A stretch of 32,036 nt of DNA, taken from assembly GCA_048885525.1 (NCBI GenBank), contig JBHLLP010000039.1, positions 1 through 32,036 of the forward strand, read 5' to 3'. The stretch is from Candidatus Hermodarchaeota archaeon (GTDB lineage Archaea; Asgardarchaeota; Lokiarchaeia; Sigyniarchaeales; SOKP01). Both the position numbers and the translations under genes were made by a program. This document shows, in pieces, positions 8,408 through 13,763 of the stretch (positions within the stretch are counted from its first letter, which is position 1; each line of letters opens with the position of its first letter). The notes beneath the pieces were generated by a model. The model was not told where the DNA came from, searched no databases, and worked only from the letters and a program-made list of their open reading frames with translations.

Positions 8408-9325
8408 ATGATAGATAAGGATATTCAAGATTATATCAAAGCTGGAAAAGGAGTAATAGCTGCAAAAAAACTTGCAAGAAAGTTAGTGGAACCAGGAGCA
8501 TCCTTTTTAGAAATTGCAAATAAATGTGAATTTGAGATAATAAAATCTGGATGTCAACTTTCATTTCCAATTAATATGTCTCTAAATGAAATTGCTGCTC
8601 ATTATAGCCCCCCTATCGATGATCAAACTAAAATACCTGAAAAAGGATTATTAAAAATAGATATTGGTGCGCATTATAATGGATATATCGCAGATTCAGC
8701 ATTCACAATTAATATTGATGAAAATCCCAAACTTCAAAATTACATTGAGGCTGCAAGAGAAGCTCTTGAAGCAGCAATTGAATTATTTAATCCTGGAATT
8801 AAATTGTTTGAGATTGGTGAAGTTATTGCTCGAAAGATTATAAAAAGAGGTTTAAAACCAATTAAAAATCTAGGAGGTCATGAATTAAAACGATATAATT
8901 TACACGCAGGTCCTTTCATTCCAAATTATAAAGATAAGGTGCATAATCAAGAACTTAAACCAGGAGATGCTTATGCCTGTGAACCTTTTTCAACTTCTGG
9001 AGCAGGGAGAGTTGATAATGGAGATCATGCCTATATATTTCGGTTTTTAAAGAAAATGAAAAAAAATATGTCTTATGAGTATTTAGGATTTATGAATAAA
9101 ATTGAAAATAATTTTGGACAACTACCTTTTTCCCCACGATGGATTGAAAAGAATAATATTATCCCTAAGACTAAAATTCAAAGAACTCTTGAATTTTTCA
9201 TAGGAAAAAAAGTTTTAAGTAAATATCCTATTTTGATTGAAGTTCTTAAAAAACCAGTAGCTCAAGAAGAGCATACAATTGTATTAGATAGGAATGGTAA
9301 TAGAATTGTCACTACTAAAGAATAA
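8408..9325 (+). CDS. map: Methionine aminopeptidase type II
   Basis: FPINMSLNEIAAHYSP, KIDIGAH..GYIADSAFT, NLGGH, LHAG, EPF, AQEEHT. Confidence 0.96.
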   Translation: MIDKDIQDYIKAGKGVIAAKKLARKLVEPGASFLEIANKCEFEIIKSGCQLSFPINMSLNEIAAHYSPPIDDQTKIPEKGLLKIDIGAHYNGYIADSAFTINIDENPKLQNYIEAAREALEAAIELFNPGIKLFEIGEVIARKIIKRGLKPIKNLGGHELKRYNLHAGPFIPNYKDKVHNQELKPGDAYACEPFSTSGAGRVDNGDHAYIFRFLKKMKKNMSYEYLGFMNKIENNFGQLPFSPRWIEKNNIIPKTKIQRTLEFFIGKKVLSKYPILIEVLKKPVAQEEHTIVLDRNGNRIVTTKE

Positions 9326-10184
9326 TAATAAAGAAAACCTCTCTATTGTTATTTTATGTGCTGGGAAAGGAACTAGACTTAAGAAAATTATTAAAAAAAT
9401 TCCAAAACCATTAATCAAAGTAGGAAGATTAAATGATATTTCAATTCTCCAACAAACAATTAATAATTTAATAAATTGTGAAATAACCTCTATTGCTATA
9501 GTAATTGGATATTTAGGAAATGTTATTAGTGAATTTATATCTAGATTAATAAAAAATCATCCTAGACTACGAGATAAATTGATAATTATAGATACTGAAA
9601 ATCAATATAAATTAGGTCCTTTATATTCCTTGTTATCAATAACTAAGAATAAGAATTTTTTCGTTAAAAACAAGAATTATATAATAATTCCAGGAGACAC
9701 TATTTTTGATTATAAGATTTTAAAAGAAATAATCAGAATAATATCTAATAATTTTTCTTTAATTCAAAAAAATCCATTTATCTTTTATAGAAATATAGTA
9801 TTAAGACAATTAAAAGAAATATATAATAAAAAAAAAATAATTTCCTACGCTGAAATTGAAATTTTTCAGTCAGAAATTATTTTAAAAAGAATTTCTCAAA
9901 AAAGAGTAGGAGATATTGACTCTAAAAAAGTGGTAAATCAAATAATCCCTATTATCGTGTTAAATTATGACATTATTCATGAGATCTTAAATTTCGAACA
10001 AAAGGATCAAATTGAGACAGTTTGGGAGGTTTTAAACTATATAACTTTAAATGGAAAGAAAGTACTCTGTTTTGAAGTTAACAATGAACTCTATTTTTAT
10101 GATATCGATACTAAAGATGATTTAAAAAAACAAAAAAAAAAAGAAAAGGACAATAGGTGCTCCGATTATTCTAAGAATAATTGA
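9294..10184 (+). CDS. Sugar/choline-phosphate nucleotidyltransferase-fold protein (NTP_transferase)
   Basis: IVILCAGKGTRL...IPKPLI, IIPGD, YDIDTKDDL; true start may be a few codons downstream; 3' end overlaps the candidate ncRNA. Confidence 0.8.
   Translation: MVIELSLLKNNNKENLSIVILCAGKGTRLKKIIKKIPKPLIKVGRLNDISILQQTINNLINCEITSIAIVIGYLGNVISEFISRLIKNHPRLRDKLIIIDTENQYKLGPLYSLLSITKNKNFFVKNKNYIIIPGDTIFDYKILKEIIRIISNNFSLIQKNPFIFYRNIVLRQLKEIYNKKKIISYAEIEIFQSEIILKRISQKRVGDIDSKKVVNQIIPIIVLNYDIIHEILNFEQKDQIETVWEVLNYITLNGKKVLCFEVNNELYFYDIDTKDDLKKQKKKEKDNRCSDYSKNN
10124..10142 (-). terminator. Oligo-T tract (T11-G-T7 on minus strand), putative terminator of the candidate ncRNA
   Basis: Lies directly after the 3' arm of the 12-bp terminal helix; archaeal terminators are oligo-T. 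Confidence 0.5.
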
Positions 10185-10597
10185 TTCGAAGGAACTAAGA
10201 CATAAAAATCCAATGAAGCAATTATGAAATCAAAGCTCCTATTTAATTATTCCGATTTATTGGTTATATGATTTGATGTCTCATGTATCAATAATTCTTA
10301 CTTTATATTCAACAAGAGTTCAAATTTTTTATTGATGCTATAAACCAAAATCGTGTTATAATTGAATATTTAAGTACCTGCTATAAAGTGCTAAATTAGA
10401 TTTGTTTAGATAATTATCAATGTTCTAAAGCACTGCAGGAATAAAAGATTACTTTATAATTGAACAATGTAAATTTGAATCATTTGATTGTGAAAAAAAA
10501 AAATCACAAATAAAGAAATGGGTTATTAGATTGTAACTATATATTCGGTGTAAAAACCGTTATTTTGTATCTAATTCCAATGCAAATTGTCCTTTTC
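10143..10597 (-). ncRNA. Candidate large structured non-coding RNA (~455 nt), family unknown
   Basis: Perfect 12-bp end pairing (10143-10154 with 10586-10597), five internal stem domains, G-U pairs favouring the minus strand, no substantial ORF, upstream TATA and downstream oligo-T. Confidence 0.6.
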
Positions 10598-10620: not shown

Positions 10621-10628
10621 TATTTAAA
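10621..10628 (-). promoter_or_regulatory. Putative TATA box (TTTAAATA) for the candidate ncRNA
   Basis: About 24 nt upstream of the 5' helix arm and preceded by purine-rich AACAAGA (BRE-like); the AT-rich background weakens this call. Confidence 0.4.
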
Positions 10629-10740
10629 TCTTGTTATTAAGATAGATAATATTTTATAGGGTATTTTCGACAAAAATCAAATGGTTTTAAGATTCAATTT
10701 GAAATAGTATAAATATTAGAAATTACATTATTTATAAAAT

Positions 10741-11115
10741 ATGAGTGTTCCTATAAAGATAGTACTATTTGGAATTGGCACCTTAGAAGGTGAAATTATC
10801 CGACATATTGCTCCGCTTACTGCAGATGCGATAATTAATAAATTACCTTTTGTTCTTAGAGGAAGATTTAGTTTTGGCTCAAAAAAGTATTGGACTTTAC
10901 CCGGTGTGGAGATTTACAAAGGCTCTAATCCTAAATCAACAACTACTACAGAAAAGGGTGATATTCTCTACAATCCTAAAACCGATGAATTGATAATATG
11001 TCTTGAAGATATTGAAATGCCAAATAAAGTTAATAAAATAGGTAAAATAAATACTAATCTTGATATTCTATTACAAGCTAGTAATGGACTAAACACTAAA
11101 TTTTTAATGAAGTAA
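10741..11115 (+). CDS. Cyclophilin-like fold protein (DUF369/TM1367-like)
   Basis: APLTADAIINKLP, EKGDILYNP..LII, VNKIGKI pattern. Confidence 0.7.
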   Translation: MSVPIKIVLFGIGTLEGEIIRHIAPLTADAIINKLPFVLRGRFSFGSKKYWTLPGVEIYKGSNPKSTTTTEKGDILYNPKTDELIICLEDIEMPNKVNKIGKINTNLDILLQASNGLNTKFLMK

Positions 11116-11122
11116 CTGAACT

Positions 11123-11944
11123 ATGGCAGTTTCGAAGAAACTTAATGTAGTTTTTACAATTTTTTATTTATCTGTAATTATATACATATTACTCTTTTTA
11201 TATGTACCAGAATTTCAAAATCTCATTATTAACTCAAGGCAAAATATAACTGTGATCACACAAGGAGCGAATTATTTTTGGGCTCTTTTAATTTCCCTTG
11301 GAATATGTTTTTTAGGTTCAGCATCAATAGGGTTTCCAATCCCCTTTCCTTTCGTTTTATTTTCTCTTTCAAATTCAATACTTCTTAAATTTTCTTCTCT
11401 TGGATTAGATATATTACAAATCCTACAATTAGGTCCTTTTTGGCTTGAAATTATCTGCCTTGCATTATTTGGGGGCCTAGGTAGTGCTTTAGGAGAATTT
11501 ACTGGATATGCTGTTGGTTATGGAACAAAAAAATTGGTAGAAGAAAGGGATTCAGAACTTTTACGTAATGTAAATGGATTTGGAAAGTTAATCATGGATA
11601 ATAAAAAACATACTTCCTTATATATATTCATTTTTGCTCTAACACCCCTCCCAGATGATATTTTATTTTTACCCTTAGGAATGATTAAATATCCTTTTTG
11701 GAAGTGTATTATTCCCGGTTGGTTAGGAAAAAATATTACTACATTGTTTTATTGTTGCTGGCCGATCTTTTTAGCACTCGGATTCGTAGCTCAAGGAATT
11801 CAATCCAATGACATATCAAGTATAATAACAGAAGCGATTTTATTGTTAGTTACAATAACAGTTATGTTTTTTATTATGTCTTTTAATTGGACTAAATATC
11901 TCAATAAAAGAAGTCAAAAAAAAATACATAATCCAAGCTCATAA
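11123..11944 (+). CDS. DedA/VTT (SNARE-associated) family membrane protein
   Basis: GGLGSALGEFTGYAVGYG and FALTPLPDDILFLPLG...GWLGK motifs. Confidence 0.85.
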   Translation: MAVSKKLNVVFTIFYLSVIIYILLFLYVPEFQNLIINSRQNITVITQGANYFWALLISLGICFLGSASIGFPIPFPFVLFSLSNSILLKFSSLGLDILQILQLGPFWLEIICLALFGGLGSALGEFTGYAVGYGTKKLVEERDSELLRNVNGFGKLIMDNKKHTSLYIFIFALTPLPDDILFLPLGMIKYPFWKCIIPGWLGKNITTLFYCCWPIFLALGFVAQGIQSNDISSIITEAILLLVTITVMFFIMSFNWTKYLNKRSQKKIHNPSS

Positions 11945-11956
11945 AATAATTTAACT

Positions 11957-12142
11957 CTATTCTACACCATTACTTAAACAATTCTTACAAACAAAAACCG
12001 TTTTCCTTTTTTTCTCTGAGTTTTCATCGTAATAAATACGTTTGTAGATAAAATTTTTACAGATCTCGCATATAGCTGGAGTTCGGACTTCTTCTATTAA
12101 TGGTCCTAAATGCTTAAAATTAGATTTAACTTTCGAATTCAT
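11957..12142 (-). CDS. Small C4 zinc-finger protein (~61 aa)
   Basis: CEIC...CKNC; ATG at 12142 just after the Alba stop is preferred over the track's overlapping start at 12181. Confidence 0.65.
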   Translation of the reverse strand: MNSKVKSNFKHLGPLIEEVRTPAICEICKNFIYKRIYYDENSEKKRKTVFVCKNCLSNGVE

Positions 12143-12146
12143 AAAT

Positions 12147-12473
12147 TTAAGTATTTGTTTTAGTTTGAAGCGTGATTTCAATATTAGAAATTATATCTTT
12201 TTTATTCTTATTAATTTTAGAATTTTTATTATAGTAACCTCGATGCTTATGGGCAAAATAGGGACGACTTCCTAAAGAAACATTTGCAATTTCTATTCTT
12301 GGATACATCCGACTTTTTAGAATTTCAGCGACTTCTACCGCAGTACTAATTTCTTGGCCTTCTCCTTTTATCAATAATGATTTTCTACCTCCAGAGAATG
12401 CAAAAATTGCGTCTTTAATTGACTTATCTTTATCATTTCTGTTTCTAATTATAATTGTATTTTCATTAGTCAT
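12147..12473 (-). CDS. Divergent Alba-family nucleic-acid-binding protein
   Basis: LLIKGEGQEISTAVEVAEILKSR ... VSLGS ... ISNIEITL aligns to the Alba consensus IKARGRAISRAVDVAE ... VSxIEIxL. Confidence 0.8.
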   Translation of the reverse strand: MTNENTIIIRNRNDKDKSIKDAIFAFSGGRKSLLIKGEGQEISTAVEVAEILKSRMYPRIEIANVSLGSRPYFAHKHRGYYNKNSKINKNKKDIISNIEITLQTKTNT

Positions 12474-12635
12474 GAAGTTCGTCTCATTCGCAACAAAATT
12501 TTATACTATATTAAAAAGAAGCTTAGTTTATTTCTTATTAATTTATTAAGTATATAAAATTTTACTAAAATTCCTAAGGAAATAATATTTTTTTATATTT
12601 TTAAAGTTTGATAAATATATACCAAAATGGTTTTA

Positions 12636-13763
12636 TTAATCTATGTTTAAATTTAGTTTTGAACGTTCATTTAACTCATCTAAGATCTTACAATATTCAG
12701 AACTTCTCTCTTCTAAACTTTCAATAACCTTTCTTTCATTAGTGTCTAGATAGGAATAATAAGGAAATACTTTTTCAATTCTTTCAGAGAATTCATTCAT
12801 TAATTTATCATACCATTCATTTGGTGTTTTTAGCATATTTTTTATTTTTTTTCTGAGTTTTTCTTTTCTATTCTCATATTTATCTTTTTCATTTTTTCCA
12901 ATTAACTCATCTAGCTCATCATAAGCAATAGCAATAATTTTTTCTATCTTTTCTCGAAATTTAGGAATCCTGTATGACTTTTTAAAAAACTCAGTGTCCC
13001 ATTCATACAAATAATTCTCATCCTCTTCTGCAGTCTCTTTATCTTTGGTTATAATTATATCTTCCTTAGGTACTAAAATTAAGCCATAATTCCTCTGTAA
13101 TTGAGCTAATGCCTTCTTTTGGAGTACCTCGTCAATATATTTTATTTCATTTAACACTTTTTTCATATTTTTGTTTACGTCTTTTATAACCTTTTCAGCT
13201 TTTTCTACCATTATTTTTTCTTTTAATTCATAATTTAATTCTATTAAATCGTAAGTAGAGGAAATTCCTAATTCTGGGTTTTTAAGTCTTAATCCTGCCA
13301 TTCCTAAAAAGTGTGAGTCAGATTCTTTTTCAGAATGATCAAATATTAACCCAACAGCGTAAGGATTCGGAAGTTGATATCCTAACTGAGTCATACAATC
13401 GATTGGAGAATAAAAGAAACCAAAACCTGGGTGAGTATGGAACCAACCAATTATAAAATCAGTTTTATTATCTTGAATAGAACGTTCGAACACAGATGCA
13501 TCAATTTGAGCCATATCCACATATTGTTTGTTCTCATATTTTACTCCTGCTCGATCTCCTACAACCATTGGAATTGCATCTTTTATAATTACCTTATCAT
13601 AATTTTCTATAGATCCTATTAAAATCCCATAAACTTCGCGCCATTTCTCTGGCTTTAAATCATTACTAGCGTATCTTATTGCGTAACCAACAATTCTCTT
13701 ATATGCTTTTATAGTTAATAATACTGGAGTTTTGAAAGGATCAATTTTTTTACTTTTCATCAT
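12636..13763 (-). CDS. JAMM/MPN+ metalloprotease (Rpn11/Csn5-like) with long helical C-terminus
   Basis: EVYGILIG (catalytic Glu) and GWFHTHPGFGFFYSPID (HxH-x7-S-x2-D). Confidence 0.9.
   Translation of the reverse strand: MMKSKKIDPFKTPVLLTIKAYKRIVGYAIRYASNDLKPEKWREVYGILIGSIENYDKVIIKDAIPMVVGDRAGVKYENKQYVDMAQIDASVFERSIQDNKTDFIIGWFHTHPGFGFFYSPIDCMTQLGYQLPNPYAVGLIFDHSEKESDSHFLGMAGLRLKNPELGISSTYDLIELNYELKEKIMVEKAEKVIKDVNKNMKKVLNEIKYIDEVLQKKALAQLQRNYGLILVPKEDIIITKDKETAEEDENYLYEWDTEFFKKSYRIPKFREKIEKIIAIAYDELDELIGKNEKDKYENRKEKLRKKIKNMLKTPNEWYDKLMNEFSERIEKVFPYYSYLDTNERKVIESLEERSSEYCKILDELNERSKLNLNID

Follow-up and report, generated by a model that had tools for sequence, protein, structure and literature searches.

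A probable new family of structured RNA with paired ends, encoded beside a cyclophilin-like gene in Lokiarchaeia

To our knowledge, archaea have few well-known large non-coding RNAs that are conserved: ribosomal RNAs, RNase P RNA and SRP RNA. In bacteria, OLE, GOLLD, ROOL and raiA are large orphan non-coding RNAs, all of them in Rfam. Asgard archaea are the closest known relatives of eukaryotes. A fourth conserved, covarying archaeal RNA, 350–630 nt long and found in just one family of Lokiarchaeia, would constitute a new class of RNA, and its defined start, end and fold would make it a concrete target for learning which RNP machinery this lineage has. It would also illustrate that searches guided by G+C content can miss structured RNAs that are AU-rich.

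The DNA analysed here, called the window, is a stretch of 32,036 nt from an Asgard archaeon (contig JBHLLP010000039.1). It contains a gene-free gap of 556 nt between a sugar-nucleotidyltransferase-like ORF (9294-10184, plus strand; NTP-transferase ORF below) and a cyclophilin-like gene (10741-11115, plus strand). We conclude with good confidence that 10597 to about 10132 on the minus strand is a real structured non-coding RNA gene of a new family. The predicted RNA is about 460 nt long, and its five hairpin domains (E, D, C, B and A) lie within a closing helix, P1, formed by the 5' and 3' ends. Judged from its sequence, the gene carries an archaeal promoter of its own, with TTTAAATA 23 nt upstream, and a predicted end in a U-tract. 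The gene is supported by conservation, single copy, helix covariation, strand bias and the exclusion of known families. Its features, in the order of transcription, were as follows.

10629-10635, minus strand: purine-rich BRE-like stretch, preceding the TATA box
10621-10628, minus strand: TATA box TTTAAATA, ending 23 nt upstream of the 5' arm
G10597, minus strand: predicted transcription start, the first base of the P1 5' strand
10586-10597, minus strand: P1 5' strand GAAAAGGACAAU, 100% complementary to 10143-10154
10577-10583, minus strand: conserved motif GCAUUGG, just after P1; a second copy of CAUUGG lies in domain A
10519-10579, minus strand: domain E, long irregular hairpin (UGG/CCA, AUUAGAU/AUCUAAU, CGGU/ACCG), in both the MFE and the centroid folds
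10488-10509, minus strand: domain D, hairpin UUGUGA/UCACAA with a U-rich loop (U11), in the predicted fold
10377-10439, minus strand: domain C, long hairpin, closed in the window by CCUGC/GCAGG and AGUGCU/AGCACU
10253-10353, minus strand: domain B, with the blocks CUCUUGUUGA (10309-10318), GAUAC (10285-10289) and GAGACA (10277-10282)
10153-10242, minus strand: domain A, long hairpin, 92% paired within the genus, with helices A1 (AUAGG/CCUAU), A2 (GCUUUGAUU/AAUCGGAGC, two U-G pairs), A3 (AUAAUUG/CAAUUAU), A4 (UUCA/UGAA) and A5 (GGA/UCC)
10143-10154, minus strand: P1 3' strand AUUGUCCUUUUC, complementary to 10586-10597, with covariation
10124-10142, minus strand: U11-G-U7 tract, predicted terminator, shared with the A-rich end of the convergent NTP-transferase ORF

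U-tracts are the archaeal termination signal (PMC8716108).

Many of these elements had been proposed in an earlier note written from the letters of the window, and they were checked on the sequence and in relatives. The two arms of the 12-bp end pairing were 100% complementary at 10143-10154 and 10586-10597, and stems C, D and E were found where they had been placed and as they had been described. The two U-G pairs assigned to stem A (10152-10167/10228-10243) exist on the minus strand only. Stem B was present in the window and in near relatives but was only partly conserved further out. The TATA-like box said to lie about 24 nt upstream is TTTAAATA at 10628-10621 (minus strand), 23 nt before G10597, and the T11-G-T7 tract said to follow on the minus strand is the U11-G-U7 at 10142-10124. 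The scarce G and C residues were indeed concentrated in the proposed stems, with 36.5% G+C inside and 19.9% outside (Fisher p 2e-4).

The fold of the window alone gave limited information. The 455 nt folded better than shuffles on both strands, as had been proposed for checking, but with z-scores of -3.69 (plus) and -3.47 (minus) folding failed to separate the strands. A perfect 12-nt inverted repeat turned up in 146 of 500 dinucleotide shuffles (29%) of this 1.1-kb AT-rich stretch, and the 12-bp end pairing by itself was therefore not beyond chance. From the window sequence alone the pairing proves little; it is conservation and covariation, in the comparison with relatives, that show it to be real. 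The RNA has a G+C content of 25%, compared with a window mean of 27.5% and with 46% and 44% in the RNase P and SRP RNAs of the same genome. Such a value is unusual for a tightly folded, stable RNA and counts against reading the element as a non-coding RNA; the difference from 46% and 44% argues for a loosely folded or protein-supported RNA. A pattern scan of metagenomes gave 17 DNA contigs, of kb length, with no transcript-like ends.

The same build was found in at least nine of the 13 genera of one Lokiarchaeia family. In it a TATA box precedes the 5' arm GGAYAAUAG, and the 3' arm CUAUURUCC, 343–632 nt away, is followed by a U-tract. In 23 genomes of the same genus the gap was alignable at 61–83% identity, with the same synteny. 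A covariance model built from domain A alone (R1) gave one strong match per genome in 48 of 53 genomes of g1, 32 of 42 of g22, 5 of 10 of g21 and the single genome of g19, and in these four genera the 5' arm lay 343–505 nt upstream of the 3' arm. Three genera missed by R1 (g12, g14 and g16) showed the same build, up to 632 nt long, in the region upstream of the cyclophilin-like gene. The pattern of promoter and 5' arm was present in eight of the 13 genera, which with g12, found by eye, makes at least nine. In all relatives examined TTTAWATA stood 22–24 nt before the 5' arm, and a U-tract followed the 3' arm in every one. Promethearchaeum syntrophicum, Harpocratesius and Lokiarchaeum ossiferum have distant cyclophilin-like homologues, and upstream of these the build was absent.

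The element was single copy in a genome 99.3% complete, in which the next best match was 28 nt. One relative (G120) carried two near-identical copies of the RNA locus, on contigs C57 (3287-3380) and C117 (912-1005); the second is probably due to a strain mixture rather than duplication, since this assembly has an estimated contamination of 9%.

For covariation, an alignment of 88 sequences (A5) was made with MAFFT and was not fitted to any structure. Thirty-six pairs from helices P1, C1, C2, A2, A4 and A5 were counted on it. In total 87.6% of the cells were paired, compared with 83.2 +/- 0.3% in shuffles (0 of 500 reached it). There were 142 double-change cells compared with 62 in shuffles, and the covariation score was 0.162 compared with 0.105, both again at 0 of 500, in a control that ignores relatedness. 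When the partners were slid along A5, 37–54% of the cells were paired and the covariation score was 0.046–0.098. Changes on both sides were seen in 19 of the 36 pairs. The covariation across relatives that the earlier note had called for was thus found (142 against 62).

P1 was 97.4% paired in these sequences, and its pairing probability in partition functions of 89 sequences was 0.8–1.0. Its core GGAYAAU was invariant in 88 sequences, and covariation was seen at positions 4 (C-G 72, U-G 12, U-A 5), 10 (U-A 41, G-C 35, A-U 8) and 11. In one genus P1 was 15 bp long, with an inner part of different sequence. Helix A3 occurred in at least six sequence versions, every one of which pairs. In the GUGC/GCAC helix of domain C all four pairs were changed on both sides, with exchanges from G-C to A-U and from C-G to U-A in separate lineages.

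Covariation within the genus alone was not significant, as its helices are too conserved. RNAalifold on the whole MAFFT alignment recovered only a few helices because the variable regions misalign.

The domains differed in how they were conserved. CAUUGG was nearly invariant across the 88-sequence alignment and was found in 85 of 89 sequences. The apical CGGU/ACCG of domain E was kept within the genus, and its lower stems varied in sequence between subclades with pairing retained. Pairing was likewise retained in the stem of domain D, the sequence of which is clade-specific (CCGA/UCGG, UCUGG/CCAGA). In most relatives domain C was closed by GUUCC/GGAGC and GUGC/GCAC (RNAalifold consensus). The blocks of domain B (CUCUUGUYGA, GAUAC and GAGACA) were conserved across four genera. 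Its outer stem showed a compensatory change in near relatives, from GGUU/AACC to GGUA/UACC, and for the family as a whole no common fold of domain B was found.

The strand was read from the type of pairs. There were 324 G-U cells and 118 A-C cells, and the structure was 87.6% paired on the minus strand compared with 80.8% on the plus strand. The G-U excess, together with the orientation of the promoter and the U-tract, assigns the RNA to the minus strand. Two things generally looked for in a non-coding RNA gene were present here, namely a promoter and a terminator at conserved positions and helices backed by compensatory changes. The earlier proposal of a minus-strand structured RNA of no known class is supported by the covariation, the conserved positions of promoter and U-tract, and the lack of an Rfam match.

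Rfam 15, the comparison suggested earlier, gave no family on the window region at gathering score or at E<=10. A scan of 11 orthologous loci gave nothing consistent, and a search of the literature found no published description of this RNA. As part of the reading as a minus-strand gene, and with the same good confidence, we take it that the RNA matches no described family and is a new structured RNA family.

RNase P RNA was rejected, as RF00373 matched neither the window region (E<=10) nor the 11 orthologous loci (E<=5). The CR-I signature GGAAAGUCC, which forms the P4 pseudoknot, was found in 1 of 88 sequences with one mismatch, and a shorter form of it in 6 of 88. No P4-type pseudoknot was found. 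A likeness to RNase P or MRP RNA was rejected on the lack of a model match and of the CR-I motif. The canonical RNase P RNA of the genome lies at C49 (15089-15412), with 123 bits.

SRP RNA was suspected at first because RF01857 found nothing in the genome of the window. It was rejected in turn, with no model match at the locus and with relatives that carry SRP RNA at another locus beside the element. The SRP RNA of the window's genome is split over two contig ends (C46, 1-229, and C52, 23519-23649), which is why the Rfam model misses it. The remark that RNase P and SRP signatures are missing at the locus thus held, both RNAs being located elsewhere in the genome. In 28 relatives the Archaea_SRP model scored 46–84 bits, below its gathering score of 96.5 bits; this order thus has divergent SRP RNAs, which annotation would miss.

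Box C/D sRNA, defined by box C (RUGAUGA) and box D (CUGA) near paired ends, was also rejected. UGAUGA (box C) occurred in 5 of 88 sequences only, and the snoRNA matches in Rfam were at chance level, none of them at the locus. No K-turn was found in domains A and C, read by eye. A riboswitch or cis-regulatory leader did not fit either: what comes after the element on the minus strand is the U-tract and, beyond it, the NTP-transferase ORF in antisense. A MITE or other mobile element, named earlier as a reading that dispersed copies would favor, was rejected because the element is single copy, and it occupies the same syntenic site in all genera.

One difficulty for a full-length RNA lies inside it. 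A run of at least six U was found at a median position of +92 in 78 of 88 relatives, and a second run in 58. Archaeal transcription would be expected to stop at a conserved U7-12 run some 92 nt after the start, which counts against the full-length RNA. In the window the U-rich loop of domain D may, from its sequence, be an internal terminator or a site for a U-binding protein; the caveat raised earlier about this loop stands, given that the run is kept in those 78 relatives. The main product could then be a short RNA of some 100 nt, made up of the P1 5' strand, domain E and stem D, that ends at the internal run, the rest being a read-through tail or a second unit and the locus an attenuator or two RNAs. 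Such a short product would agree with the termination of archaeal transcription at U-tracts (PMC8716108) and with the 5' part (CAUUGG and domain E) being among the best conserved. We nevertheless consider it unlikely. The 5' arm covaries with a 3' arm 343–632 nt away, which requires either one molecule or precise pairing in trans. Moreover, domains C and A covary too, and a second promoter was not seen downstream of the U-run.

The neighbouring genes offer a different explanation, namely that the element regulates them in cis or as an antisense RNA. At its 3' end it shares 42 nt (10143-10184) with the end of the convergent NTP-transferase ORF, its promoter stands back to back with that of the cyclophilin-like gene, and the same genes flank it in all genera examined. 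However, the overlap is not conserved as protein, tblastn matches stopping at residues 277–288 of 296. Adjacency is not specific, since synteny extends over the whole 6-kb block, and in one g15 genome the pattern and the cyclophilin-like gene are on different contigs. A covarying fold of 460 nt also exceeds what antisense action needs. Regulation of this kind is very improbable as the main role of the element.

An RNA-free explanation, with inverted protein-binding sites in the DNA, such as origin or recombination boxes, on either side of an AT-rich spacer, would account for the nearly invariant arms GGACAATAG/CTATTGTCC, the third copy of AATAGG inside and the equal fold z-scores of the two strands, but it is hardly credible in view of compensatory changes that extend the helix with clade-specific sequences, the excess of G-U over A-C pairs (324 against 118), covariation of the internal helices, and a TATA box and a U-tract placed exactly at the two arms.

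The surroundings of the RNA gene were also surveyed. The cyclophilin-like gene and those of a VTT-domain membrane protein, a 74-aa ORF (orf74), Alba and a JAB-MPN protein (10741-13763 in the window) form a block that is syntenic beside the RNA in five genera. As the whole block is syntenic, the neighbouring genes say little about the function of the RNA. The distance from the RNA to the Alba gene is about 1.5 kb in four genera and about 3.4 kb in g12. In the g15 genome mentioned above (G051), the promoter and 5' arm are at C75 (47744-47783) and the cyclophilin-like gene is on C211; the adjacency of the two is therefore not universal. By reading through an A-run, the NTP-transferase ORF extends into the 3' domain of the RNA gene (10143-10184). 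Its annotated C-terminus is probably an overlap artefact, since the last 14 or so residues are not conserved in orthologues.

The cyclophilin-like protein has 124 aa. It is 57–84% identical across most genera of the family and 38–43% in g12. It had no NCBIfam match and no significant sequence match in PDB (E 0.39); its Pfam matches, to Cyclophil_like, were weak only. A leaderless mRNA is suggested by the sequence ATAAATAT, which stands about 26 nt ahead of the ATG.

As for how the RNA would work, we tentatively favor action in trans as a protein-binding scaffold; this is pure inference, and the odds are somewhat against it. The strong promoter, paired ends, U-tail and multiple hairpins would suit a stable trans-acting RNA. 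The sequence-invariant P1 (GGAYAAUAG/CUAUURUCC) and the repeated CAUUGG, GAUAC and GAGACA could be contact sites for protein or RNA. The conserved internal U-runs could be sites for Sm-like proteins, or they could form a leaky terminator, which would set the ratio of a form of about 100 nt to the full-length form.

The 3' CCUAU has two alternative partners in most relatives, the 5' arm and the internal AAUAGG (helix A1). If both pairings matter, the near-invariance of the 5' arm, AAUAGG and the 3' CCUAU would follow from a three-strand constraint. The subclade of the window has lost the inner AGG of the 5' arm and has gained GAAAA, which pairs with UUUUC beyond the core. P1 has thereby moved outward, and both P1 and A1 can form together.

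A bolder suggestion is that the RNA is the core of an Asgard-specific RNP, which would be an archaeal counterpart or forerunner of the eukaryotic RNPs of the small nuclear, MRP or 7SK type, or else a new kind of conformational switch. It would draw on the paired ends with a U-tail, the U-rich sites for Sm-like proteins and the three-strand exchange, and we regard it as a long shot. An Sm ring binds single-stranded R-A-U(4-6)-G-R. The motif R-A-U4+-G-R was present in only 38 of 88 sequences, as expected by chance in an AU-rich RNA. Among the runs of at least six U, found in 78 of the 88 sequences, 54 follow A.

Compared with described RNAs, the element shares its terminal stem, made from both ends and followed by a 3' U-tail, with the eukaryotic snRNAs, Y RNA and 7SK, as a resemblance only. 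The internal A-U(n)-G runs resemble the Sm sites of eukaryotic Sm-class RNAs, again as a resemblance only. The element has no sequence or model similarity to Sm-class or Pol III-type RNAs.

Archaeal RNase P RNA (RF00373) and eukaryotic RNase MRP RNA (RF00030) are closer in layout. Like them the element is a single-copy, stand-alone gene of 300–500 nt, the 5' and 3' ends of which pair in a closing P1 around several hairpin domains. It differs from RNase P RNA in having 25% rather than 46% G+C, and it lies in a genome that already has a canonical RNase P RNA. With archaeal SRP RNA (RF01857) it has in common a similar size class, paired ends and one copy per genome. On the other hand, the SRP model does not match it, and SRP RNA is at a separate locus in the relatives.

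The large orphan RNAs of bacteria named at the outset are long, conserved and covarying, of unknown function and each found in one lineage only, which is also a description of this element. Unlike OLE, GOLLD, ROOL and raiA, it has no Rfam match, is much more AU-rich and is archaeal rather than bacterial or phage-borne. It differs from them too in being strictly single copy at a fixed chromosomal site.
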